From Cirrosporium novae-zelandiae (Eukaryota), in contig JAPETS010000021.1 of assembly GCA_026023565.1 (NCBI GenBank), positions 62,001 through 126,000 of the forward strand: 64,000 bases of DNA, given 5' to 3'. The notes under the pieces were generated by a model. That model did not search any database. It was not told where the DNA came from and saw nothing but the letters and a program-made list of their open reading frames with translations. Below are positions 18,161 to 58,960 of this stretch, piece after piece. The position numbers and the translations under genes are program-made. The number at the start of each line of letters is the position of its first letter. Positions within the stretch are counted from its first letter, which is position 1.

Positions 18161-19553
18161 ATGGGATCCCCTTCGGAAAGCTCCAAGCTCGTGACAGTTC
18201 TCGCAGAAGCATCGGCCCAGTATGCCAAAGAGAACCCCAAAAGTGCCAAAATCAACAAGGAATCTCTATCAAGTCTTTCTGGAGGTGTGCCATAACGCCC
18301 CCACCAAGTCTATATAATGCAGCTTAAAGTTCTAAGGAACCACTCGAAACGTCCTTCACTTCAACCCGTTCCCCCTTGTCCTCTCCTCGGGCGATGGCCC
18401 TTATCTGACAGACGTCGACGGCCACGAATACCTGGACCTCTGTGCAGAATATAGCGCCGGCATGTTTGGCCATTCCCATCCTTCCATCACTTCTGCAATG
18501 CATTCTGCGATATCATCTGGTTACGCCCTGGGGGGTGTCAACATATACGAAGGGCGCCTCGCCCACCATTTCACCTCACGTTTTCCATCTATATCAAAAA
18601 TCCGTTTCTCAAACTCCGGAACCGAAGCAGTGCAGACGGCGCTCATGCTTGCAAAAGCTTACACTGCAAAAAGCACAATCATTGTGTTCAAGGGCGGCTA
18701 TCATGGCGGGCTGGCAACATTCCTCACGGACAGCGTCAGCGGCGAGAAAACCATGAACACCCCCCACAAATTCATCATAGTCCCATACAACGACGTCCCT
18801 GCCCTCACCACCACAGTCGAAACCCACAAATCCGACCTCGCTGCCATCCTCCTCGAACCGATGCAAGGATCCGCAGGCTGCATCCCAGGCACACTCCCCT
18901 TCCTCCAAGCAACACGCTCCCTGGCATCCTCAGCTTCCGCAGTCCTAATCTTCGACGAAGTAATGACAAGCCGCATGTCCGCATCAGGCCTCCAAGGCCT
19001 CTTGAACATAACCCCAGACCTTACAATCCTGGGAAAATACTTCGGAGGCGGAGGTCTTAACTTCGCCGCCTTTGGTGGCAACGACGAAATCATGAGCCTG
19101 ATTGAGCCTGGCCACCCGAACGGGGTCTACCACAGCGGAACCTACAACAACAACGTCATAACCATGGCGACAGCTTCCACCGTCCTCGAAAAACTCTGGA
19201 CCCCGGACGCCGCATCCCGCCTCTTCGATCTTGGCGATTGGCTCCGCGATTCCTTAACCCGGCTCTCAAAATCTAACAACGCAAATTTGCAGGTAACGGG
19301 CATGGGAAGCCTCATGAATATCCATTTCCTACCTAAGGACCTTAACGCTGAGGTCGTGAGAAGCGCTGAGGATATCAAAAGGGGGGATATGGTGCTCCGG
19401 GAGCTTTTCTTTTTTGATATGCTCAGGAAGGGGTATTTTCTAGCGCGGAGGGGTATGATTAGTCTGATGACGGTGCATACGAAGGAGCAGCTACAGGGGT
19501 TTGTGGATGCTGTTGGGGAGTTTCTTCAGCAGAGGAGGGTGTTTGTCTGTTAG
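18161..19553 (+). CDS. Class III PLP-dependent aminotransferase (glutamate-1-semialdehyde aminomutase / beta-transaminase-like); intron ~18285-18336
   Basis: DVDGHEYLD.CAEYSAGMFGHSHP, RFSNSGTEA, FKGGYHGG, LLEPMQG, LIFDEVMT, PDLTILGKYFGGG (PLP Lys), HSGTYNNN. Confidence 0.9.
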
Positions 19554-24643: not shown

Positions 24644-25611
24644 TATCAACAACATGTCAGGTAGACAGACGTCCAAGACGTATAATGGCAATAATACATA
24701 CAACTCTTAACTCATAAAAAAAATACCTGTTTAACACTCTCGATTTTTACTCGCGGCGGCAGCAGCAGTAGCACAAAGAAAAAACTGCTTTAACTAATTA
24801 AAGTATAATTAAAAAAAATTACTGCAGAGAGCAGGGAAGGGAATAGACTAGATCGATTAGGTCAAGGGGTTCGGTCTGGTCGGTCTGATCTATTTCCTGC
24901 CCTCTGATCACGAATCCTGATACGGCCATACTTTAGCATGCAAGGCCCTTTGTTCTTCATTTTCCTCTAGATCAATAAAAATCTTTTGAAATGTCTATTC
25001 CACTTTTGTACTTCTTCGAGTGAACGTTCAGCATTCTGGTACAGGTCTTTATGGTCTCTGCCCAGTTGTCTTATCATGAATCGAATATCCTATATTTTCC
25101 TCTCAAAGATTAATCACTCCTAAGACATTTCACCCTTCTTTATCTTCTCCTACCCCTAAAAGTCCACTCACCTTCTCGCTGTCCCTCGCCACTCATGCTC
25201 ATACACAGTTCCAGGAACCCCTCCAGCCCCAGTTCCCTCATGACCATATTCACCACATCTTTCAGGCACACCAAATTCTCGTTTTTGGTTTCGGGTGTGG
25301 GGTTGAGTTTTGCTATGTGGGTCGAATATGACGATGCACAGACTTAGCGGTTGATAGTGAGAAGATCCAACTAGGCTTCTTTCGGATAGCGGGCTTGGCA
25401 GGGCGATGGCGGATATAACACGCTACGTACTCCTTCACAACTACCTACCATCAAAGAAACAACTCGCTGACGAGAAGGTGGTCATAGCATTCATTAACAA
25501 ATCGCATCCGTCCTCATCCATTCAATCCTTTCAGCACCCTCTTTTTACCATTTGAATTTTCACTACTAGTCGTGTCACCCATAACAACGGCCCTTATATT
25601 TCTATCTCGGT

Positions 25612-26376
25612 ATGTCTTTGCCAGTAACACCACCAGAATCATGCCCGAATGAGGACCAGGATAAACCTTATATTGGACGTGGAGTGGTTGGGCTTGGTAT
25701 GACTGGCCTCATTCTTTATCTTGATGAGGACCGTGTTGTCAAAGTTGCTCACACCTATGATTCCCCTGAGGACGAATATCTGAATGATTGCAACCGCGGA
25801 AGTTTGAAACGTGAGCGGGAAATCTACAAGCGGCTGGGCAATCATAAGAGGATCATCACTTGCTTCAAAATTTCAGAGTACGGGATCGAGCTAGCCTATG
25901 CGAAGCAAGGCGATCTGCATAGTTATATCGAGACCAACACTGAACCACATGAATCTTTCAAGACCGAGTGGATTTTGTCACTTACCGACGCTCTATCCTA
26001 CGTTCATTCACGCAAGGTTTTCGTAGATGAGATTGCCCTCCGGAACATTTTAGTCACCAATGATCAACTCAAGCTCTGTGATTTCGGCCAGTCCTACTTG
26101 CTGCCCTTGACTGCTGACGTGGACACGATATGCGAAAACCATTTGACCGCAAAAATTGAAATCCTTCACCTTGGTTGGGTCATCTATTCGATTGCTGTTT
26201 GGGGTGCGCACAAATACTATTATTTTGAGCACGAAAACCCACAATGGCCCGACCCACGAACGCTTCCCCCGACAAATCATCTCTTCTGTGGAGCCATCAT
26301 TAAAAAATGCTGGAATGGGGATTATGTTAGCATGGATACCCTGAATAAGGAGGCTTGTGCTTTATTGGCGAAATGA
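25612..26376 (+). CDS. Minimal intronless protein kinase-like protein (254 aa)
   Basis: VGLGMTGLI (Gly loop), VVK, REREIYKRLG.H, LAYAKQGDL, VFVDEIALRNILV, LCDFG, IIKKCW. Confidence 0.82.
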   Translation: MSLPVTPPESCPNEDQDKPYIGRGVVGLGMTGLILYLDEDRVVKVAHTYDSPEDEYLNDCNRGSLKREREIYKRLGNHKRIITCFKISEYGIELAYAKQGDLHSYIETNTEPHESFKTEWILSLTDALSYVHSRKVFVDEIALRNILVTNDQLKLCDFGQSYLLPLTADVDTICENHLTAKIEILHLGWVIYSIAVWGAHKYYYFEHENPQWPDPRTLPPTNHLFCGAIIKKCWNGDYVSMDTLNKEACALLAK

Positions 26377-29217: not shown

Positions 29218-30634
29218 ATGATTTATTCTCTCCTAGAGAAATTTTGCGAGTCCGCTGACTGCATCTGCCAACTGGCTGCCCGGTGGCGAATGAATAATGA
29301 CTGCCTTTTTATATCAATGGACTGTGGCTCCTTCAACCATAGCATTCGACTTCACTGGGATGATGGCGGGCAAGACTGGTTAATTCGTTTTCCGATACCG
29401 GGGAGTTCTATGCTCTGCGACGAGAAAACATGCAACGAAGTCGCCGTGATGAAGTTTATTGAGCAAAACACTAATATTCCTGTCCCTCATGTTGTGGGAT
29501 ATGGAATGTCGGACGAGAATCCTACAGGCCTTGGACCTTTCATAGTCATGACTTGGGTTGAGGGTAGGACAATGTCAGATATCCTCAAGGCCAAAACATC
29601 AAACAATGAGGATGAGAATATACTGGACCCAGACATAGATGAAGCGATACTGAAGACTCTATGGCCAGATGGCTGATGTCCTGTTGAAACTTTCGAAGCA
29701 TTCTTTTGATCTTATTGGTTCCCTAGATCTGGATGAAGAAAACAATTCGTGGTCTGTCAAAAGTCGGCCCCTAGGTCTGGAATATAACGAGATGTTGAGA
29801 TGTGCACATCTTTCAGATAATCACTGGCCCCCAAGAGTTTATTCGACAGCTACCGATTACTTTTATAAAAAGTCTGAACTCCGTCTCACCCATCTTCACA
29901 AACAACGAAACAGTGCCTATACTTCAAGCGACTGCCGAGAGAAATACGCTTCCAGCCACCTCTTTCGAGCAATCATGCCTCATTTTATAAACTGCGGCGA
30001 AGACCACGGCCCATTTAAACTATTCTGCGACGATTTCTGCCCCAGGAATGTACTCGTGGACGACTCCCTTCAAATTACAGCTGTTATCGACTGGGAATTT
30101 TGCTATTCCGCTCCAGCTCAATTTTTAGGTAGTCTACCTTGGTGGCTTCTACTTGGTCGGCCAGATGTATGGCTTTCCCGTATACTGCCAAAGAATTTCT
30201 TAGCGCTCTATACTCCAAAATTCGAGCTCTTCTGTCAGATTATGGAAGAGAAGGAAAATGCCGGCGCAGGGTATCCGACTGAGCATCCTTCTGAACGACT
30301 GTCGGTTCAAATGCGTCGTTCAATGGAAAGCAAAACAATCTGGTTCAATGCCGCTGCCCGGTCCTGTTATGGCTTCGACCGAATATATTGGGACATGCTT
30401 GACGAGTTCTGTTTTGGACCGCAGGAGTCTATTGCAGAGAGAGTCACCAAAGCCACTACCGATGTAGGCATGTATAGTGATCGGGAAGATTTGGTGCGCC
30501 GGAAGATTGAAGATCTTCGCGAGTATTATGCGGCGAGAGGCTGTGACAAGGAGGTTAGATATGAAGCAGAAGATATCAGTTTGAAATTGACTGATCCAAC
30601 AGCTAATTTCAAGGCAGGTGTTTTAAGTTATTAG
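29218..30634 (+). pseudogene. APH-like phosphotransferase with one frameshift at ~29660
   Basis: GSFN...LIRFPIPG...EVAVMKFI...IPVPHV...GPFIVMTWVEG, then CDDFCPRNVLVDD...VIDWEFCY; the two ORFs join as KTL(Y)GQMAD if 2 nt are restored. Confidence 0.78.
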
Positions 30635-33196: not shown

Positions 33197-33994
33197 TCAT
33201 GAAGTGGTTTCGGAATTCTCAACTAGACCCCGCAGCTTTCTGATATCTCCCATCACATCATCCATGTCCTTGTACTCTCCATTCCAGCAACGTTGGAGAA
33301 TGTTTCCTAACAATAGATTCTGCACAGGTGGAAATTCATTCGCTGCATATAGCCCTTGGACCCGAGCCCCCAATTGTCCTATACTCAGTTCTACCTCCAG
33401 CTCATGATAAGGCGGATGCCCAGATTCAATTTCGAACAATGTTGATCCAAAAGCAAAAATATCTGTTTGAACACTGATTTCAGGTGTGGCTGGACGGTAG
33501 CTACACCATTCGTAGCAAACTATTGCCTCCTGCCCATCAATGCTGGAGCCACCAAAATCGATAAACTTTATATGTCCGTCTGAATCTAGAATCAGATTAT
33601 GGCAGCCCACATCAGCCTGAACAATTCCGTTTTGATGTATATAAAGCAAGCCTTCTGCCGCCTCCTCTGCCCAGCGTAGTTTCTGGGCCGGTGGGATGGT
33701 TGATATTTTTACTTCTCGATACCTTTTTCGAAGGCACTCCCCCCGTTCCAATACGATTCCATCACTCGTCACTCCGTAAAAGTGAGCTATTCGGGGGTGA
33801 TCGCCAAGACGTCTGTACGCACGAATTTCGATATTGTAAGCGGCGTCTTCTTCGTTGCGCTGTTGGTTGTTTGATGATTGAAAATAACGTTTCACTATTT
33901 TTTGTTTGTCCAAAGCGTAGATGACTGCAATTGTTCCAATAGCAACGACCTCGGCTATATCTCGATTGAGCTCTGGAAGAATATGTGTCTCCAT
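33197..33994 (-). CDS. Minimal intronless protein kinase-like protein (~265 aa from METHIL)
   Basis: AIGTIAVIY, IVKRY, IEIRAYRRLGDHPRI, IVQADVGCHNLIL, FIDFGGS, TDIFAFGSTLFEI.SG.PPY, ILQRCW. Confidence 0.85.
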   Translation of the reverse strand: METHILPELNRDIAEVVAIGTIAVIYALDKQKIVKRYFQSSNNQQRNEEDAAYNIEIRAYRRLGDHPRIAHFYGVTSDGIVLERGECLRKRYREVKISTIPPAQKLRWAEEAAEGLLYIHQNGIVQADVGCHNLILDSDGHIKFIDFGGSSIDGQEAIVCYEWCSYRPATPEISVQTDIFAFGSTLFEIESGHPPYHELEVELSIGQLGARVQGLYAANEFPPVQNLLLGNILQRCWNGEYKDMDDVMGDIRKLRGLVENSETTS

Positions 33995-34216
33995 TGCTAG
34001 GTGATGGGGGCGTTGAAAAACTAACAAAGGCAATTAAGAGTAGTTGCATCAATCAGCAGCAAAGATGCCAATAACTATTATTGAATTGATGGTCTAGAAA
34101 GCTATCCGAAGCGATATGCCAGAAGTTATAAATCTCATGCATGACTAATACTTTGTGCTACCAATAGCTAAGCTAGCGTTGCATTCATGAATTTCCACTC
34201 TCACAAACAATTTCGT

Positions 34217-37079: not shown

Positions 37080-40000
37080 TCATATGTATGCTGCCAGGTT
37101 ATCATAGGCATCCTCATTTTCTTCCAAGTTTTCGCTACTGCCTAACGTTTCGACTAGTATCACATGGGCTTTCATTTTGTATTCCTCGGCTCGTGGATCA
37201 TTGAGATCTCGCAAGACTAGAGAGAGTTTGAACATTGAGCAAGCGATCCTTGTCTCAAAAAGAGATTGAATAGCCATGCTTTCTAATATCCTGATAGCTT
37301 CATAGAAAAGATCCCTGCCATAGAAACTTTTAGTAACATATATATATCATAGTACGCTTTCCACGTACCTCGCTTCAGTAAGCTGGTGCAAATGATGATG
37401 ACAAGATGCCAACATATGCAGAGTGCTAACAGTGTCATGGTGATCTCCTAGTTCCTCTGATCTTAATTGAAAGGCTTCTGTCAATAGTTCTTGCGCTTCC
37501 TTTGCCCTTCCTTGCAGAAGGCGCATGTACCCAAAGTTGTGGTACGTTGGAGCCCTCCTCAAGGTATCAGGCGAGCTTTTTCCAACCTCCAACGACATGG
37601 TATAATATCCTTCTGCCTTTTCCCAATGTCCTTGGTGTCCGTACATATTTGCCATATTGCTATATGAGAGGCTGAAAAGATAATCGAGATTTGGTTGGTT
37701 CGCCTGGTTCTTCCATCTTTCCTTCAACGCCAGGGAGAGCTTATTGTTGATTTCAGCTTCATCTAGATGACCCAAGGCACAGTATATGCCTACGAGATTG
37801 TTGTATGCATTTGCAAGCTGTATCTCATCAAGAACTGTTGCATTTCTGCCCCCAGATTTATTCTTTCCCCTTTCAAGGTTCGATTTAGCTGCAAGTATTA
37901 GTTTCTTTCCTTGGTCCAGAAGCCTGCACTCCCGGAGTTAGATTTCTCCATCCACAAGTAATTCTGTCAAGATTGATAGCAGCGTCAAGTGACCCCGGAA
38001 GGCTGTAGCAGCAGCGTTTAGGGAGATTACATGAGAGATCTACTTCTTACAATTTGGCCACTCTGCACTTAAAGGCTCTGCAAAATGCGGTTGCCTGGGG
38101 AATACTTTGCGGACTAGGAACAGGATTCCGTTGAAGGCATTCTGCAACATAGTAGGATCAAGTTGATTATGAGCATACCTTCTGATCTGGCAATGCATCG
38201 ATAGAGTTGATGTGTTTATGCCCGAGGTCTTCGTGACCAACGAGTATCTTTGAAGTTCGAGAAATGTTAGTTCAAAGCTAGTACACTGACGTTAGCCTCC
38301 ATCAAATCTCCGACATAGAAGAGCGACTTACTCGGAGTGGGTTGTTAATGATTGTATCTCTGATTCCTTTAAAGCTCCAGCGTCAAACAACTCTTCAGGA
38401 ATTCTATCTGGGTCTAGAAAAGCCATCATACTAATTAACAAGATGGCTGTTGTTGATAATTTACCAAACGCCAGCTTCCACGTTGTTGCAAGAGTATGCA
38501 AGTATGATACTGCTCGGGGGCCTTCAACCCGGGAATCAACGGGTGATGCGGTAGGAAGTTGTTGATAGAGTAATAGGAACTTATAAGGATCAGAGTTTGT
38601 TGCAGCAATGTAGGACCCGATTTAGCGGATTGTAACAGGAAGCCTCCCGACCTCATTCACTATCTTGCCTGCAATTGTTTTAGACATATGTTGGGTTACT
38701 TTAGATGAAACTTCTTGCAATAACTGGATGCCCTCTGCTTGTGAGAAGGACTCTACCTTAACACCTTTCATGAGATGCTCTTAGAAAAGCCAACTTCGGT
38801 CTTGGATCGTAAGTAATATTGAATCTCCAGTGGATAGAGCCTAAAATTCTTCTATGTCGTGCGGGCTATTAGTATTATCGAAAACAAGTAGCCAGTCTTT
38901 CTCTAATAGAAATTATTTGAGTATATCGAAATTCCATAGGGAATTGATAACAAACCTTCTTCACACAGCCAGTCTTCTACCAGTGCTTGGGCTTAGGAGT
39001 GACCTGCATCGTTTAATCTTAGCTTTCGGGCAATTTCAACAAATCCTTGAGCAGTCTTGACGGCGGTGTCACACGTAATCCAGAAGCATGCTTGGTAAGA
39101 AGCTTTATATCTGTATATATACTCCAAGGCTATCTGAGGTTTGCCGTTTCCTCCTAGAACCCAGAGCGCAATGGATTTAAGAGTATTCCTATTGTAAATT
39201 GAAGGGGCTTGGATTTCGTGGATCCTCGAGAGATAGATTTAACGGTCATAGAATGTTTGCCTTCTTGGATATGGCACACTGAAAAGATGGGCCTACGTTA
39301 ACCCTAGCTGTTTTGATGACGTTGATCTCTCAGTAAGATTTAGACGTGACACGTCTCCCATGGCGGCAGCATTGGCCTCACGATTTCTTTTCTGGGCGTG
39401 GAGGAAGTGGGCAGAGTTTAATTCTTGCTCAACTTTAGCTTTCAATTCTCTTAATCGTCGTAGTTGCATTCGAAAACTCCTTTGGTTTCATTTCCATTTT
39501 AGCTTAGTGATAATTCCTAAAGGTTTGTCAATCTAATTGGATGTGAGTGAAAAGCTTCTAGCCTACCTATGTCGGAAATTTTTGACAGTCAGAACTCCTA
39601 CAGATATATACTTTTGATAAACGTCCATTATAACCAAGTGCAAGTCAGGACTATCAGGAATGAGATCAATATATGAATCGTAGCGATGGAGGGTGCTCAA
39701 GAGATCGTCAAAGATCCCGAGAATGAAATCCATTATATCAGGTATTTCCAATGTCGCCTAACAAAACCAGTGATCAATAACTCCTTATTTGTTTGATGTT
39801 ATCACCTCGGCTACTAATCCCAAAATGCCTCTTATCATTGATGCTGGTCGAGGGAGCCCTGGGTGGATGTTATCTAAGATATGTGCCACCGGTCGGGAAA
39901 GACGAATGACCTTTTTAAGGCGAGGGGGGTTGCGCTTGAGAGAATTTTCATGTTTATCAAGGTAAGTTTCAAGCTTGGTCAGGTCGTTGAACAATGGCAT

Positions 40001-40399: not shown

Positions 40400-42268
40400 A
40401 AGACCCTAGTTTTCTCAACTCTTGTAAAGTGCACAGGAGGTATTATACGCTTAATCTCAGGCGCTGGCCCTTCACATACACCCGCTTGAAGATCCTAGTC
40501 AATCCTAGCTATTTTCTCGGTATCATCGCGTGTGAAAGAGAGAAGAATGAGTGGTAGCGTCATATATCCTTCCATTCCTTTCCTTATTGCATCATCCCTC
40601 GAATGAGGAATGAACGTCCAAGCATCATAATGATAGTGTTGCAGTTTAGTGCACTGTTTTTTAAGGTTATTTATATGAAAACTTAGTAGTTCTGGATTTG
40701 GTCTACTGTCAACCTTAGATTCCGATAATCTATAAACGTCGATGGTAAAGCTGAATCCTTCGTTGGCATAGGATCCAATATATTCTTCAAGTGGAGCGGC
40801 CTTTGTATGCTGGACCCTATTAGATACCCACTCTTCGACAAGGGCTGGCCAGATGAGGCTAGATGTTTGAGCTGCAGATTTCGCATATGATTCGTAGTCG
40901 ACATGAGGCTGCATATCGAAAAGGCTTTGGCAGAGTGCTTGTGCAATTAGGTCCGCGGGATCTCCACGACTAGGGGTACAATTCGCCATGACAACTATTG
41001 CACTACAGCTATCCGGAAATGTGTAAAAGGCCGTAGTGAAACCATTAAATTCTCCATAATGAGCTATGGTGAGCCGGGGAGGGCCATCTTGATTCATGAC
41101 TGGAGGATCAGGCAGTAGTGCAAAATTAGGACCAATTGACCCAAGCCAGGACGATGGCAACATGTGGCGAAACCATCCCAGGCCGTAGGAGTTCTCGTAC
41201 TCGCTGGCTTCCAGGGTCATCGGTCGATGAGCATATCTTATGAACTGCATCTGTTTCAAAGGATTTGATGAGAGCGACGAAGAAGCCAAGGGGTGATTCC
41301 CATCCACCTGCTCTGTCTCTGTTTCTGCATCCATGACTGCTTTTTCCCAGGTGAGCATGTCTCGAACTGAGCTCCTGACATATCCTGCTCCAGCTTGAAG
41401 AGATCCATCATTAAGAGCCGGCAATTCCAAAGGGTGTAGAGAATAATCATCTAGCACGGCATATCCTCGCGCAAAATTGCCATCCGCTGGATAGTTTTCG
41501 TTTTTTGTGCAGCTTCGGGTCATCCCTAAAGGCTTGAATATTTTATTTTCAAGAACAGTGTCAGATGTTGTTCCGGACACTTTAGCAATGACATCGCTCA
41601 CAATACCAAGCAAGGTGTTGTTGTAAAGCCAGCGAGATCTGAAATCATAACACACAAGAAGATGAGACGCAATTTTCACTTGCTCCTTCCCGGGATTATA
41701 GAACTCGTCATGAAATCCACAGACAATGTGGTCAAGCGGGGCCAGGCCTGTTCCGTGGGAACATAGGTCCAGCAGCGTAGCTCTGTTGCTTATCTCAGGA
41801 TCATGAACTGTGTGGAATTCAGGCAGATAGGTCTTTATGGGCTCAGTCCATGACAACTTTGATTCATTTACCAGGATGCCACATGTTGCTGTTGTAAAAG
41901 CTTTTGTGTAAGGGCCACACAGTAAACGGTATTTTCATCGGGCTTGAGATTCTTTTCTACGTCGGCGAATCCTTCACCGTGTAGGAAGACGACTTTTCCT
42001 TCATGTAATACTTCACAGGAGATGGATGCAGCACCGAATGATTTGCGAATGTTCGTTATGACTGGATATAACTCCTCGAACCTTCTTGTTATATCAGTTA
42101 GCTTAATTGCCTGTAGGCTACTGGAAGGAGAATCAAATACTTGGAGAGTGCTAGATCGGATGAATCAGATTCCGAAGTCATCAAAGATTGTTGACGTTTA
42201 GTTTTCGGATTAGTTAGTAAAGAGGCTGCTTTATAACTATTAAGGAATGACGTCTTGGAGCTAGACAT
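40400..42268 (-). pseudogene. Class C beta-lactamase-like serine hydrolase (C-terminal DUF3471-like region), disrupted
   Basis: GEGFADVE...PDENTVY, frameshift at the SxxK motif (~41905), ATLLDLCSHGTGL, WLYNN, IFKPLGMTRS, HYGEFNGF, EYIGSYANEG; TAG at 40495 probably from TGG. Confidence 0.75.
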
Positions 42269-50985: not shown

Positions 50986-53086
50986 TCAAGCCCAATCACT
51001 CCACCCCACCCCCAACCGACTCGTATACGCCTTCGCATTCTGCGGTCCCTCGGCATCGATCACATATCCAAACTCGCACCTCGAATACTCCACCTTATCC
51101 TGACTCCGATAAAAGTCATCAAACTTCCTATCCAACGCATCCCCCAAGCTCCTCACATCCCCACTCGGATGCAACACCCGCCAGGGTTCTATACACTCCT
51201 GCCACCCTTTACACCCTTTCGTAACCAACAGCAGCGCATCCAGCCTCGCCACTACTTCGGAGAGGGGCCGACCTAACAAATACCTAGATTCAAAATTGGG
51301 GTTGTCAAAAAGGCTTTCGAGCTCGTAGGGGTCGGAAGAGAGGTCATAGAGCTGGTGTGCGTTGTTGCACCAAACGGAGTAGTAGAGATTGTAGGTGGGG
51401 CTGAGCAGGCGCAGGGCTTTGTAGGTGTTGTTTAGGGTTATGGTGGGCAGGGTGGTTCCGGGGCGGAAACCCATCACGCCTTCCCAGGCGGCGAGACCCC
51501 AGTATTCGACTGTTACGTGTTCGTGACGGGGGTGGTGGGGGGGAGGGAGAGGGAGAGGATGGGATGGGGGGTTAGAATTGGGATCAGAGCGGAGGTCGAG
51601 TTTTGGCTGGTTGGGATTGGGAGGGGGAGAGGAGGGGATCAAGGGGATAGGCACGCCATCGAAATCCTCGCGGAGCGGAAGCCCCACAATTTCGAAGATC
51701 GTAGGTGCCAGATCAATATGCGTAGTAACCTCATCCACAACCTGATTCTCTGCAATCCCCGGACCCCTAATAAAAAGCGGCACCCTAATATCCTCCTCAA
51801 ACCCACACTCCTTCCCCGGCTGCAACCGATGCTGACCAATATGATATCCATTATCGCTCGTATAAATAATATACGTACTCTCCAACAACCCCGCATCCTC
51901 GAGCTTCCTAACCACATTCCCAACCAACTCCTCAACCGTCTGGAGCACCCGGAGACGGTTTCGGTAGAAATGGTCGTTGTAGGCTACGTTGGTGGCGTTT
52001 TGGACCGGGAGGGAGGCGATCCAGTTTACACCTGAGGGGGAGTCGGGGGGGTTGAAGTGAGGGGTTCGGGGCACTTTTGCATCTGGGAAGAGGTGCGCGA
52101 AGCGCGTGGGTGGGATGGGTGCGGTGATGGAGAAGTCGGAGTCTACATTGAAAATGTTTTTTGCTTCGACGTTGCTGTGCGGTGCCGTCGTTCCGACCGT
52201 CAAAAAGAACGGTTTTTCATCCTCCCCTCCCCCCTCCCCTTCCTCCTTCGAGCGAAGGAATCCCTCAATAGCCTGATCCAAGAACCCAAGCGCCTTACCC
52301 GCAAGCACATCAGCACTATGCTCCCCCTCATGACTCACGGGCACCTCATGATCGCGCTGAAAGCTCGAATTCAAGTAATTGTACGTGTAGGGGTCGAGGA
52401 GGAAGTCGGAGTGGTTGAAGCCCGAAACGTGCGGGTTGTTGTAGTTGTCGACGGTGTGGGCGTTGAAGAGTTTTCCGGTGTAGTAGGTTGAGTAGCCGGC
52501 TTGTTGCTGGAGCCAGAGGGCTAGATGGCCGATTTTTGAGGGGTCGTTGAAGCCTTGGGAGACGAATTTTGGGTAGCCGCCTAAGGGGATGGAGAAGGTT
52601 AGGGTTTTGGGTGGTTTTGGGTGGATGTGGGGGGGGGGATTTAAAAAAGAAAGCTTCAAAGGCTTTGCTTTACTTTTACTTTTACTTACCATATGGCGGA
52701 TTAACATCCGTAACATTAGTATTATGCGGCTGTCTCCCCGTCCACAGACTAACCCTGGACGGACAGCACAACGCCGTAGTCACAAAATGGTTTCTGTAAA
52801 ACGTTCCCTTCTTCATCAGTTGCTCCACGGCTACGGGTGTGTACTTTAGGGAATCCATCTGCAGGTCTTGGTCGTCGGTTAGGATGAACACTATGTTTGG
52901 GCGTTTTGGAGGCGGGGGGGGGGTTAGGGTGGAGAGGTCATTTTCATTGTTGACGGTCTGGTGGGGATTGAGGAGGTTTGAAAATGGGATTTGGAAGGCA
53001 ATTCCTCCCGCTGGAAAGAGGAGGAGGAGGAAGAGGCTGCATATTGTTGTTGTTGTTGTGAGGAAAAGGATGGATTGGGACTTCAT
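50986..53086 (-). CDS. Secreted arylsulfatase (Neurospora ars-1-like); intron 52581-52689
   Basis: Signal peptide, RPNIVFILTDDQD, TTALCCPSRVSLWTG (CxPxR formylglycine motif), YTGKLFNAH, TSDNGYHIGQHRL.PGK, QLYDLSSDPYEL. Confidence 0.93.
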
Positions 53087-53835: not shown

Positions 53836-55936
53836 ATGTCTTCCTACTGCCGCGAGGCTTTGTCGGAGAAGAGAGGACTAAAGTTTGATGATGATCATGG
53901 TCCAAATGTCACGACTCCTCTCTGGAATCCTGTGGCTGGTCCTTCAGGGAGTGGATTTGCACCAGGCCCATCGTACGAAAGCATCGTCAGTGGTACTATT
54001 GGGAAGGCTCCAAGGATTGATCAAGAAATCATAGACTCTAGCGAAGAATCCAGCGAATCGACGGATTCTGAATGTGCTGATGGCCATCATTCTGTCGCAA
54101 GAGTGATATCGGTCCTATTCTTTGGTTGGTAACAAATTTTTCTCCCATTTTGATCATATCTAGAGCTGTTGCTGATAGCTTGCGTTTTAAAATATAGGCG
54201 TAATTATTGCAAGCTTAGATGCAACATTAATTGTTGCAACCAATGCTGGAATTGGCTCTGAGTTTGGGAGATTGCAGGATTCTGGTTGGCTCATGAATGC
54301 ATATACCCTAAGCATGTGTGCAGTTCAGCCAATGGTGAGTCTCTGATTTCAATGACATTAACGGAATGCTGATTGAGACTTTTTTTCGGACAGTATGGAA
54401 AATTGAGCGACATATATGGCAGGAAGCCATGTTTGTTGGTTGCTTATGCATTTTTTGCCATTGGATGTGCCGTCTGGTATGGTTGCTGCTCATAATATCC
54501 GGGCTAGCTGAGCTCTTATTCACTTCAATAGCCTCCTCTCGAAACTAAGCTGATGCGTTTTGCTTAGTGCAATAGGACCTGAATTCTGGCAAATTATCCT
54601 TGGTCGAGCAATCAGCGGACTTGGGGGTGCCGGAATGGTATCTCTGGTCGCCGTCGTCATCACCGGTAGGTTTCAAGTCGTTTGCCATTACAATTGACTA
54701 CTGATCTGTCTTCAAGACATTGTCCCTAAACGCGATGTCGCAGCATGGCGTGGCTATGTGAACGTGTGTATCACAATAGGTACCAGCGTCGGTGGCCCGG
54801 TCGGCGGCTTCCTCCAAGATACAATCGGATGGCGGTGAATGTTCTTTATTCAGGTACCACTCACCTTCCTCGCCGCCATCGTCGTTTCATTCAGACTCCG
54901 TCTTTCGGAATTCAAACCCGAGATAGATTTTGAATACGACCTAAACGCGACCCCTCCGGCTTCAAAGCTCAGGAGAATCGACTTTTTAGGGACCATCACG
55001 CTTGCGACCGCAATTGTCACCGCATTGCTTATTCTCCATCTTGGAGGAACAAAATTCCCATATTATTCTTGGCCTACGCTTCTCCTTGGGGGGCTGAGCA
55101 TTCTTTTCCTAATTGCATTTGTCTTGATCGAGGCTTATATAGCCAAAGAGCCCATTTTCTCTTTACAAATCTTTCGTAAATCCAACGTTATCGCCAGTTA
55201 CATTGCCCTGGCAGCTCAAATTTCCGCGCAGATTGCTATGATGTTTTCTGTTCCCTTGTATTTCGAGGTAACTAAGCGAACCTCTGCTACCACCGCCGGT
55301 GCACACCTTATTCCTGCTATTTTTGGCAATGCTACAGGGAGCCTTCTAGCTGGTCAATGGATGCGTAGAACTGATCGATTTAAGCCATTCGTTGTATGTG
55401 CAGGTCTTATTTCCAGTCTAGCATATGTCCTACTCTACCTTTTTTGGAACGGCCATACAAACTTCTGGGAATCCTTGTATATCTTTCCCGGTGGTTTTGC
55501 CAACGGACTAATTGGTGTCTCTTCATTCATCGCCATGACCTCCAAACTTGAGCCCCAGGACATTGCAACTGCAACCACCGGACTGTTTTTCAGTCAGAGC
55601 ATCGGGATGGTTAGTGGAATTTCCCTAGGAACTGCTGTGTTGAGAGGGGAATTAAAGACACAGTTGACTAGGAAAATACAAGGCGAAGGTGCACGGGAAA
55701 TAATCCATCAAGCAATGGCCGATGTTCAATATGTTGGTCATTTAAATGGGAAACTGAGAGATATTGTTGTTGGTTGTTATATTGCAGGACTGAAATCTAC
55801 ATACAGTAAGCATTGTTCAGTGCATCATTGGGATTGAGTGGAATTAACATGTCTTGTCTGTGTAGTTATGTCGCTCGCATGTGCTCTTTTCAGTTTTGCG
55901 GTCTCGCTTACGTTGAGAGAGCATCGTACGAGATAG
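53836..55936 (+). CDS. MFS DHA2-family (Vba-like / multidrug) transporter, multi-exon
   Basis: GVIIASLDATLIVAT, YGKLSDIYGRKP, GRAISGLGGAG, GGPVGG.L.D.IGWRW.FFIQVP, LRRIDFLG, FSVPLYFEVT. Confidence 0.87.
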
Positions 55937-56350: not shown

Positions 56351-58960
56351 ATGTTAGAGTCGTTGTTGTCTGGACCAGAAACATTCACGAAAGAATCGAT
56401 AAGGGATATACTCAATGAAGATTTGTATACTTCAGATGGGACTGGCTTACCAAAGGAGATTTCATGTCTTGACCCTTCTGTGCCAGAAGTGGTGCGCCTA
56501 CCCTCTGGCAAGCTTCGATATGGCGAAAGAAGAAGTCCTTCCCAGCGTCGGGATATCCTCGTTCAGCTTTGCAACGACTTCTTGCAAAGTGTGCGTGATT
56601 CAAAGTCGCATTACTCGCACCTTGATCATGCATTTTCCAAGACTCTTACATGCAACTTCTTAGCTCACGGCAAAGCACCACATGATGAAATCGTTGAAGG
56701 GGCCTTTCGATTCCTATCCAGACTTCCTGCATATCCGCCTGAAATTGAGTTTGGCAAACAGCAGGTTGTGGCAGAATCGTTCTCGAAAGAGTATTTCTTC
56801 GGGAACATGCAAACCAACTTAGCCAAAGCGAACGAGCCTTCATCTGCCTGGCAATCCTTACAGGTTGTGAAAGCCGTGAACAAGAATATCATTCGAATGG
56901 CGCTGCAAATTACAGCAAACTCGCTAAGGGAAATGAGAAATCAATACTCCGAGGAGCTCTTCGGATTTGTTGACCTGACTGCAGAGCTGTTCCAGATTGG
57001 TTGTGAAATGGCCTCACAAGAGAATGATATCAAACACAAGCATCTATGGTTTGTTGTCTGTAGCTTTCTTTGGACATCATGGCAACGTTCGGTCATGTTG
57101 TTCTTCTGGACCGTGTTGGATTTTGATATTAGGCTTGGTTTTTCCTATAATGATGTGCAGAGCCTTTTTTCCGGGAGAGTTCCCATAAATCTGACCGAGG
57201 ACGTCCATCTCCGTCATGAGCAAACCAATCTAAAAGCAAGTGCCATGTGCAATTGGGCTTATGAGCTTTTAAAATCAGATAGAGCATCCCTCACTAAGGA
57301 CTTCAGACGGTTTCATGAGCGGTATGCAAAAGTATTTGGGGATCGAGGGCCACGCTGTATCCAAGGGGACTCCCCAAATCATTTTGGGCTTTGCGATGGC
57401 AAAACTGCAAAAAACTGCAAAAGGTTCCAAGGAAGCGAATCGAAAGACCAGTCACAACACGACTCGACCTGCAGAGGTAACTGTCGGCCTCTCCGATGGA
57501 ATGAAACGTCATACAGACAGATTCAAGGCATTCGAGCAGTCTGTCTCACGGTGTCAGGAGATGATAAGCTTCAGTATTGTGCTGTTTCAGAGAACACTCT
57601 TGCCATTTCCCATGTTTGGGCACACGGCCAAGGAGGTCGACCAGATGATTCTGGACTAAATAGTTGTTTGCATGAAAGATATGTTCGCGTATCTAAGGAA
57701 TTTGGATGCGATTCGTACTGGATGGATACGCCCTGTATTCCTAGCGATAAAGTTCTACGTCACGAAGCTATCATGAAGATTAATGAAGTATTTGCTACCA
57801 GCAAGGTCACCCTCGTCGTTGACCGAGACCTCATGGATATTAACGTTGATGGGCAAATACCAGTCGAGGTACGGGAATCGTTATTGGCTACATTGTTGGT
57901 CTGTGACTGGAATATCAGAGCCTGGACCCTATTAGAAGGTATGCGTGGGCGGGAAAGTCTTCATTTGCTTTGCCAAAACAACAAAATCACGTCCGTGAAA
58001 GATAATCTAGAGGTGGTAATGACTGAAGGTAGCATCGACGTAGCGACTTTATTTCTTGCGGCCCAACATTTAATACCACACCGACATCAAGTCCTACAGA
58101 AAATGAATGAAAGAGACCCGCTCCCGGAGAGTGAACTACAAAAATGCAATCAGTGCTTTTTGCAACATAGAGAGTGTGATATGACCAAGCCCGCATGCTC
58201 GCAATGCATCAGTCTTGGAAAGTTGTGCCATTATAGAGGCACGGCGCCGCAAACATACGTAAGAAAGCTATTGGAAGCTAACTACCTCTTGGATGCGGGT
58301 GGCTTTATTAGCATCGAGGAAGCTGCCAGTCTCATGCATCACCGCCATGCCACAAAAGAGCGCGATGAGTTGTTCGTATGGAGCCAACTCTGCAGCAACG
58401 ATGCCTTCGACGAGCCTGAAGAATTAATAAGGTCGATTGGTCATTCCATGATTAATACCAGCTTTCTGGTTTCTAGCGCCCCTAGGATCGAGGGAAAGAG
58501 AGGCTGGAGCTGGGCTCCTCGAAGTCCAAGTCCACTGATAAATGACGATACGTTAGGAGTGTACTACCCTTACGATAATTATAAAGGCGCTCGCGGTCAC
58601 ATCACAGAGGAAGGGCTCCGTGCCGAATGGCTCATTTACATCGTGAAGAGGCCTCACAAAGGGATGGGGAAAGTAAGGAAATTGGGATTCAGATTGACAA
58701 ACAACTCTGCAAGGTCTCCCATATGTGAAGAAATTGCGAAGCCCCATTTCAACCAATTCAAATGGGTAGCACTGTTAAGACCAGCGGATGGTACGAATAT
58801 TGGTAATATTCCGCTGAGTTATAGAGGAATAGCTACGGGACCACTCTGTGTGGTTGTGGTCTCGAATGACAAGGTCTCGTGGGAGTGGAAGGGCGTGCGT
58901 GAAATAGCAGCTACCGAAAAGCTACCTGATTTCGCGAAGGAAGAGATTTTGCTAATATAG
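56351..58960 (+). CDS. HET-domain protein with an internal GAL4-type Zn(II)2Cys6 finger (~869 aa, intronless)
   Basis: HET motifs LAISHVWAHG, YWMDTPCIP, INEVFATSKVTLV, DWNIRAWTLLE, RGWSWAP; CNQC-x6-C-x6-CSQC-x6-C at 58145-58228. Confidence 0.82.
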   Translation: MLESLLSGPETFTKESIRDILNEDLYTSDGTGLPKEISCLDPSVPEVVRLPSGKLRYGERRSPSQRRDILVQLCNDFLQSVRDSKSHYSHLDHAFSKTLTCNFLAHGKAPHDEIVEGAFRFLSRLPAYPPEIEFGKQQVVAESFSKEYFFGNMQTNLAKANEPSSAWQSLQVVKAVNKNIIRMALQITANSLREMRNQYSEELFGFVDLTAELFQIGCEMASQENDIKHKHLWFVVCSFLWTSWQRSVMLFFWTVLDFDIRLGFSYNDVQSLFSGRVPINLTEDVHLRHEQTNLKASAMCNWAYELLKSDRASLTKDFRRFHERYAKVFGDRGPRCIQGDSPNHFGLCDGKTAKNCKRFQGSESKDQSQHDSTCRGNCRPLRWNETSYRQIQGIRAVCLTVSGDDKLQYCAVSENTLAISHVWAHGQGGRPDDSGLNSCLHERYVRVSKEFGCDSYWMDTPCIPSDKVLRHEAIMKINEVFATSKVTLVVDRDLMDINVDGQIPVEVRESLLATLLVCDWNIRAWTLLEGMRGRESLHLLCQNNKITSVKDNLEVVMTEGSIDVATLFLAAQHLIPHRHQVLQKMNERDPLPESELQKCNQCFLQHRECDMTKPACSQCISLGKLCHYRGTAPQTYVRKLLEANYLLDAGGFISIEEAASLMHHRHATKERDELFVWSQLCSNDAFDEPEELIRSIGHSMINTSFLVSSAPRIEGKRGWSWAPRSPSPLINDDTLGVYYPYDNYKGARGHITEEGLRAEWLIYIVKRPHKGMGKVRKLGFRLTNNSARSPICEEIAKPHFNQFKWVALLRPADGTNIGNIPLSYRGIATGPLCVVVVSNDKVSWEWKGVREIAATEKLPDFAKEEILLI

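Follow-up and report, generated by a model that had tools for sequence, protein, structure and literature searches.

HET proteins of filamentous ascomycetes, of which BH of Podospora anserina (HET plus a lectin-fold region) is an example, are among the closest described systems to the gene reported here, an open reading frame (ORF) at 56351-58960 (+) in a 64,000-nucleotide (nt) stretch of Cirrosporium novae-zelandiae DNA (GenBank assembly GCA_026023565.1, contig JAPETS010000021.1, positions 62,001 to 126,000), called the window below. The HET domain shows remote homology to TIR (PMC10890737, PMC10197012). HET proteins commonly have a domain specific to their family on the C-terminal side of the core, and it is still unknown how HET domains are activated and by what means they kill (PMC10890737). 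The suspicion has also been voiced that HET genes make up a large and so far unexplored part of fungal immunity (PMC10197012). Gal4/Hap1-type regulators, with an N-terminal Zn2Cys6 domain and a Fungal_trans region, are the second system that the gene resembles. The third is that of immune receptors with integrated domains: the plant TIR-NLR RRS1 carries an integrated WRKY domain. The idea that fungal immune receptors, too, have integrated domains has already been published for Sordariales NLRs (PMC12258605).

An original prediction, made from the letters alone, had described the ORF as a HET-domain gene with an internal, non-basic Gal4-type finger grafted into a cell-death effector. We found that the protein (the query; its residues carry the prefix q) bears a real in-frame, lineage-specific domain insertion in a length-variable surface linker behind its predicted TIR-like HET core. 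The query shares the three HET motif blocks with HET proteins, its core may, by modelled fold, be TIR-like, as stated for HET (PMC10890737, PMC10197012), and the core is likewise followed by a family-specific C-terminal domain. It differs from HET proteins in scoring below the Pfam cut-off for HET (see below), in having a central core (q395-580), behind a 330-amino-acid (aa) helical region and a Cys/His cluster, instead of an N-terminal one, and in carrying a Zn2Cys6 module that none of the sampled relatives has. With Gal4/Hap1-type domains it shares the cysteine spacing, the Asp after Cys3, the Lys-Pro before Cys4 and a linker and short helix after the finger, but the finger is internal (about residue 600 of 869) and not N-terminal, the Fungal_trans region is missing, the basic positions are replaced and the net charge is +1. 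Like RRS1 and the Sordariales NLRs (PMC12258605), it has a family-foreign domain of DNA-binding type beside a TIR-type domain, in some members only; unlike them, it has no NB-ARC/NACHT or repeat sensor module, its extra domain is inserted in an internal linker and not appended at the C-terminus, and a role as bait is only putative. The zinc fingers given for the Sordariales NLRs in the part of PMC12258605 at hand are of other types than Zn2Cys6. In agreement with the original prediction, which knew of no described case, full-text literature searches returned no title or abstract describing a protein with HET and Zn2Cys6 domains, though five of the papers listed contain both Pfam accessions; supplements and domain-architecture catalogues were outside the scope of these searches.

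A Zn2Cys6 module inserted in a length-variable linker

The query was aligned with 19 homologues, and a block of it, lying between the family motifs QHLxP (q572-576) and GFxxVEEA...HRHA (q652-665), was a gap in all 19; the finger is thus an insertion, as had been suspected. The slot was then taken to run from P576 to R665, both invariant in the family, and the residues between them were counted in those 251 of the 261 proteins that have both flanking motifs (10 fragments were dropped). The lengths were distributed as follows:

10-19 aa: 22 proteins
20-29 aa: 46 proteins
30-39 aa: 136 proteins
40-49 aa: 39 proteins
50-59 aa: 6 proteins
61 aa: 1 protein
88 aa: 1 protein, the query

The cysteine pattern of a Zn2Cys6 cluster was present in one of the 261 family proteins, the query itself. 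Pfam detected Zn_clus in none of the 57 homologues scanned, and among the 120 proteins listed from a word-indexed search (see below) the query was the only one with a precomputed PF00172 annotation. For most of the 150 matches listed from an exhaustive search, the best matched stretch of the query ended near q575-599, before the finger. This absence elsewhere means that the finger is not a family feature; it neither dates the insertion nor shows selection.

The module extends over about q594-651 (58130-58303), that is, about 58 aa. It is thus larger than the cluster itself and as long as an entire DNA-binding unit of Gal4 type. This extent follows from the alignment with HAP1, the AlphaFold2 (AF2) helix q636-649 and the ESM Atlas superposition, all described below. 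Because the TIR-like alignments of the core end at about q576-580, the module adjoins the core in an inter-domain linker and does not lie inside it. The finger begins 70 residues after the Glu of RAWTLLE, and not about 65 aa after that motif as had been estimated. Behind it the family sequence returns, with GFISIEEA...HRHAT against the consensus GFxxVEEA..HRHAS and with WSWAP aligned to the nearly invariant W721, A722 and P723, so that the predicted resumption of HET-family-type sequence was borne out. The idea of a graft into a cell-death effector held in that a module of transcription-factor type is inserted in a HET-family protein; its position, however, is a variable linker after the core. 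The linker after a HET core can accordingly accept a folded insert, if the module folds as proposed below. The parts of the gene, all on the positive strand, are:

56351-58960 (+): whole gene, member of a family of ~800-aa Pezizomycotina HET-type proteins (P0001); from the ORF, homologue searches and ends matching those of homologues
56351-57340 (+): N-terminal, mostly helical family-specific region, q1-330; from the AF2 model and family conservation
57353-57499 (+): family-conserved Cys/His cluster, q335-383; from conservation in the alignments
57533-58090 (+): HET/TIR-like core, q395-580; from Pfam HET at q418-490 and VIA fold matches at q413-580
58130-58303 (+): inserted Zn2Cys6 module, q594-651, with zinc cluster, linker and short amphipathic helix; from the homologue gap, slot length, ESM Atlas and phmmer
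58145-58228 (+): six-cysteine binuclear cluster proper, C599...C626, with loop FLQHRE; from spacing, Pfam and the GAL4/HAP1 alignment
58259-58311 (+): intron-like signal GTAAGA...CTAAC...TAG, 53 nt, frame-breaking; from an intron-signal scan of the ORF
58304-58957 (+): resumed family sequence, with the conserved helices GFISIEEA..HRHAT..W677 and the C-terminal beta-rich region q700-869; from alignments and AF2 secondary structure

The gene is one uninterrupted, intronless ORF of 869 aa. It is colinear from end to end with the ~800-aa homologues in the alignment, from the start MLESL...TFT to the C-terminus ...EEILLI, and since its first and last residues match those of the homologues, the gene model is complete and an intron is unnecessary. 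The three HET motifs named in the original prediction were all located in the intact ORF: AISHVW at q418-423 (57602-57619), WMDTPCIP at q457-464 (57719-57742) and, within DWNIRAWTLLE at q519-529 (57905-57937), RAWTLLE with the family-invariant E529. Every family-invariant residue of the alignments, E529 included, is retained in the query.

The zinc cluster and its DNA-contact positions

The six cysteines C599, C602, C609, C616, C619 and C626 have the exact spacing C-x2-C-x6-C-x6-C-x2-C-x6-C, which fits the Zn_clus pattern C-x2-C-x6-C-x5-12-C-x2-C-x6-8-C. An Asp directly follows Cys3 and a Lys-Pro directly precedes Cys4. A regular expression for Zn2Cys6 run over the six frames of the window matched at this site only. 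For Zn_clus (PF00172), Pfam gave q599-630 a score of 25.5 bits (E 1.4e-05), with positions 3-34 of the 39 in the profile matched; the score being above the curated cut-off of 21, the finger is not a chance pattern. Spacing, Asp and Lys-Pro had all been called correctly from the letters, and the Pfam result upholds the assignment.

The 65-aa module alone matched HAP1 (E 0.0028), GAL4 (E 0.01), LAC9, Cep3, RSC3 and PPR1 when compared by phmmer with the Protein Data Bank (PDB), and q598-645 aligned with HAP1 through the linker into the start of the post-finger helix and dimerisation region. An ESM Atlas model of q592-652 superposed on the Zn_clus parts of 7 of the 7 clusters listed, with template modelling (TM) scores, taken by query, of 0.56-0.61 and 46-53 residues aligned; the ESM Atlas feature search with q588-652 gave no usable match. 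In the AF2 model, helices were placed at q593-605 (Cys1-2), q617-621 (Cys4-5) and q636-649. A complex prediction with two copies of q588-655 and four zinc ions (score 0.01, mark 0.32) spoke neither for nor against dimerisation. With its six cysteines retained, together with the Asp behind Cys3 and the Lys-Pro in front of Cys4, the module has most likely remained able to fold around two zinc ions, judging by its sequence.

In GAL4, K17 and K18 and the adjacent basic residues make contacts with CGG and with phosphates. An alignment with PDB sequences covering GAL4 residues 7-44 and HAP1 paired GAL4 R15, K17, K18, K20, K23, K27, K30 and K33 with F, Q, H, E, M, A, Q and S of the query, respectively. 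Among the GAL4 basic positions compared, only the Lys before the Pro (GAL4 K25) was kept. The loop between Cys2 and Cys3 reads FLQHRE, with a single basic residue, where GAL4 has RLKKLK and HAP1 has RKRKVK, and the net charge is +1 over q599-628; both the internal site of the finger and the almost non-basic nature of its loop had been noticed in the original prediction. Pfam searches of the query for a Fungal_trans or middle-homology region gave no match to PF04082 or PF11951 at E<=10. Since almost all of the GAL4/HAP1 basic positions are replaced and the Fungal_trans region is missing, canonical CGG recognition by the finger appears unlikely.

The host family and its predicted fold

The word-indexed search, over 5.8 billion proteins, gave 425 homologues at E<=1e-3 among 7997 scored candidates, and the exhaustive HMMER search, over 1.84 billion representatives, gave 1622 matches at E<=0.001, 246 of them with E<=1e-30. 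The relatives were ~800-aa proteins of Pezizomycotina (Geoglossum, Phialocephala, Hymenoscyphus, lichen-forming fungi, Aspergillus, Talaromyces and Nannizzia), several of them named 'heterokaryon incompatibility domain-containing' in UniRef. The closest family match was only 37-42% identical to the query.

HET motif blocks have consensus sequences of the types xLSYxWG, YLWIDxLCI and WxxRxWTxQE. The corresponding blocks AISHVW, YWMDTPCIP and DWNIRAWTLLE were nearly invariant across 112 family sequences. The Pfam HET profile (PF06985) scored 16 bits over q418-490 of the query, under the cut-off of 22.5. At the equivalent position, 44 of the 57 homologues scanned matched HET at E<=0.01 and 15 of the 57 reached the cut-off; 13 showed no Pfam family at all. 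Because the query and most homologues fall under the HET cut-off or are marginal to it, we regard the family as a divergent HET subfamily and not as one of textbook HET proteins. The low score of the query itself is a correction to the predicted HET identity. The Pfam scan found no NB-ARC or NACHT domain in the query, and the host is therefore not an NLR.

Just upstream of the HET core lies a Cys/His cluster formed by C336, C348, C356, H370, C374 and C378, which were invariant in 20 sequences and invariant or nearly so in 112; from this conservation, the cluster may be a zinc site of the family's own. Some homologues carry additions elsewhere: ankyrin repeats stand at the N-terminus of P0186, the family sequence of P0040 (named Fusarium graminearum FGSG_13410) is followed by part of a second copy of itself, and the helotialean homologues P0046, P0054 and P0067 have an insertion of ~38 aa in another loop, after q684.

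The whole-protein AF2 model, built with a 112-row alignment, was compact and confident, with a mean predicted local distance difference test (pLDDT) of 88.1 and a predicted TM score (pTM) of 0.90. It laid out the protein as the helical region q1-330, the Cys/His cluster, an alpha/beta core at q395-580, further helices and a beta-rich C-terminal region. The N-terminal region consisted of long helices with pLDDT mostly >85, and its VIA fold matches were to generic helical structures only. A model of the core domain alone (q386-710) had a pLDDT of 85.3 and a pTM of 0.80. The VIA fold search with this model gave matches over q413-580, among them:

Nucleoside 2-deoxyribosyltransferase 6evs_B, q413-580: Z 5.4, root-mean-square deviation (rmsd) 3.6, 101 residues aligned
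SARM1 TIR 9hq0_A, q413-580: Z 5.3, rmsd 3.6, 101 residues aligned
Hydra TRR-2 TIR 4w8h_A, q413-580: Z 5.0, rmsd 3.9, 95 residues aligned

Among the 50 VIA rows listed, 14 had TIR in the title and six were nucleoside deoxyribosyltransferases, and no Z reached 8. The search with the whole-protein model repeated the TIR/deoxyribosyltransferase picture for the core. Foldseek found nothing in the PDB at E<=0.001 with either the whole model or the domain model; its best TIR row, obtained with the core domain model, was AbTir (E 0.10, probability 0.66). The fold matches, weak but repeated, are consistent with a TIR-like core and agree with the remote homology of HET to TIR in print (PMC10890737, PMC10197012).

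Origin of the insertion and readings of its role

The proposal that we find moderately probable is that of a coding insertion into a length-tolerant loop, the product of which would bind two zinc ions, would not read DNA and would act, if at all, at the protein level. A Gal4-type Zn2Cys6 module of ~58 aa would have entered the length-tolerant linker after the TIR-like HET core and kept the zinc-cluster fold without the basic residues that read CGG. The module would then be a tolerated zinc-knuckle add-on adjoining a death/TIR-like domain, and any effect of it would be exerted through interactions of the host protein or through self-association. The insertion, the membership of the host in its family, the uniqueness of the finger among the sampled relatives and the missing basic positions are direct observations on the sequences; that the finger binds zinc, that it does not bind DNA and that it affects the host protein in any way is what we infer from them. 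The fold residues are kept, the DNA contacts are nearly gone and no close donor was found (see below), a combination which leans towards a fold maintained without DNA binding.

Several points weigh against this proposal. To speak of a 'loss' of basic residues assumes a donor of the typical basic kind, and the replaced positions leave room for non-canonical nucleic-acid binding by the finger. The AF2 confidence in the finger was low (pLDDT 51-74 in the full model and 51-68 in the domain model), the alignment being uninformative there. The query is a singleton from a poorly sampled lineage, C. novae-zelandiae of the class Xylobotryomycetes, for which no orthologue was found; the thin sampling is also seen at a neighbouring aminotransferase, whose best non-self relative was only 64-66% identical. 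A singleton with closest relatives this distant gives no measure of how old the insertion is or of whether it is under selection.

The module could instead be a neutral passenger bound to decay, or the locus could be unexpressed or spliced in a way that removes the finger or the C-terminus from the product. The slot varies in length by nature, with between 10 and 61 aa in the 250 other members measured, the loop after q684 takes insertions in some homologues, and the query stands alone; in addition, a well-formed intron-like signal of 53 nt follows directly after the finger. This signal (58259-58311), one of two intron-like candidates in the ORF, starts ten codons after Cys6. Its use would keep the finger but, through a change of frame, end the protein a short way behind it, dropping the C-terminal region. 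The finger itself does not appear removable, as the original prediction required: 27 GT...AG intervals span the six-cysteine block, and the donors of all of them depart from the consensus. The seven that are in frame all end in AAG or GAG, which are poor signals, so that no credible intron excises the finger. The integrity of the six cysteines, of the structural Asp and Lys-Pro and of the ORF over 869 codons also speaks against decay. Nor does a recent copy of a gene in the collection searched seem likely, as the near-length proteins among the 5.8 billion searched share at most a few 5-residue words with the finger. We hold a passenger, or an unexpressed or misspliced locus, to be rather unlikely.

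A search with the finger alone (q588-650) over the proteins of 477-1521 aa in the same collection gave two candidates, and the sole match was the query. The collection includes the gene calls of the contig on which the query lies; thus the finger is not a fresh copy of a regulator of 477-1521 aa present in it. A scan of metagenome contigs for the finger alone gave 369 pattern matches, none of which was confirmed. Two candidate traces of the insertion were rejected. A relic of a donor intron in the GTAAGA...CTAAC stretch is unsupported, for the stretch aligns as coding sequence with the post-finger region of HAP1 and its acceptor lies in host sequence. A direct repeat bracketing the slot (58030-58044 and 58309-58323, 13 of 15 positions identical, 279 nt apart) was dismissed as an insertion scar, because each copy falls within a conserved motif of the host and the pair would take in some of the host's own sequence; it is probably due to chance.

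Another explanation is that the finger is an integrated decoy or sensor, made to look like the part with which the Zn2Cys6 regulators of this fungus bind DNA, and that an attacker binding or modifying it would trigger the TIR-like death domain. The domain is foreign to the family, occurring in one of 261 sampled members, and integrated domains typically show such a presence/absence pattern; its place is immediately next to the TIR-like core; and it has lost the DNA-contact positions while keeping the fold-defining residues, as expected of a bait. For Sordariales NLRs, it has been proposed that zinc fingers and kinases serve as integrated decoys (PMC12258605), and a part in immunity has been proposed for HET genes (PMC10197012). 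However, the fingers named in the available part of the former paper are of the C2H2, ZZ, C1, FYVE and TRASH types, not Zn2Cys6, and the query lacks the NB-ARC/NACHT module. Moreover, there is a single sequence, with no orthologue found and no partner or effector in evidence, and one neutral insertion would look identical. We consider a decoy quite unlikely. By analogy, its fully developed form would be a HET/TIR-like, non-NLR protein that captured a Zn2Cys6 domain, had it stripped of DNA affinity and uses it to sense effectors, toxins or mycoviral proteins, with cell death as the outcome; for such a working bait we see a decidedly small chance. The attackers' target would in that case be the Zn2Cys6 factors, the most abundant regulator class of the fungus. 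If true, the protein would be to fungi what RRS1, the TIR-NLR with a WRKY decoy, is to plants, and no HET protein before it would have had an integrated decoy derived from a transcription factor.

The finger might also still bind nucleic acid, possibly in a non-canonical way, and localise the HET/TIR-like domain to the nucleus or chromatin. Its Zn_clus signature is genuine, the helix q636-649 behind the linker can be aligned with the first part of the HAP1 dimerisation region, and certain TIR domains act on nucleic acids (PMC10197012). Yet this helix runs for only ~14 aa before host sequence returns, and the replacement of almost all GAL4/HAP1 basic positions together with the net charge of +1 argues against an ordinary DNA tether, which makes a tether very unlikely in our estimate. 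A record with a 100% identical neighbouring protein is labelled MAG (metagenome-assembled genome), and it might be suspected that an assembly error in such a genome brought the finger DNA and the HET gene together. This is extremely improbable, given that the insert, of about 174 nt, keeps the reading frame and has family sequence on both sides within the ORF, that its GC content equals that of the gene (0.466 vs 0.462 for the ORF), and that a separately built Logan contig (17,753 nt, word depth 349) covers 57400-58960 with 0 differences and no joints or loose ends, although, as the reads may be the same, it is a second assembler agreeing on the join and not a second sample. Two further runs of the same study gave no contig matching this stretch, which does not prove absence.

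Returning to the proposed zinc-knuckle add-on, a small, recognisable and removable module next to a TIR-like core offers an experimental handle on a HET protein, and this handle bears on whether domain integration operates in fungal death proteins that are not NLRs. The weight of the finding is limited, as it concerns one sequence from one poorly sampled lineage.

No transcription-factor gene and no second Zn2Cys6 motif was found anywhere in the 64-kb window. A TPR_12/TPR_10 repeat ORF, of the kind found in the C-termini of fungal NLRs, lies at 37350-37937 (-), ~18 kb from the HET gene. Within 9 kb of one another are two protein-kinase-domain ORFs and an APH-type phosphotransferase ORF (25585-26373 (+), 29654-30631 (+) and 33200-34033 (-)). 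Other neighbours are a beta-lactamase-family protein with DUF3471 at 40498-41934 (-), a sulfatase at 50989-52779 (-) and a fragment of an MFS transporter at 54839-55834 (+). The aminotransferase mentioned above is a class-III enzyme encoded at 18336-19550 (+); its 64-66% identical relatives are named beta-transaminase or beta-phenylalanine transaminase and come from Helotiales, and it has bacterial homologues at about 48% identity.

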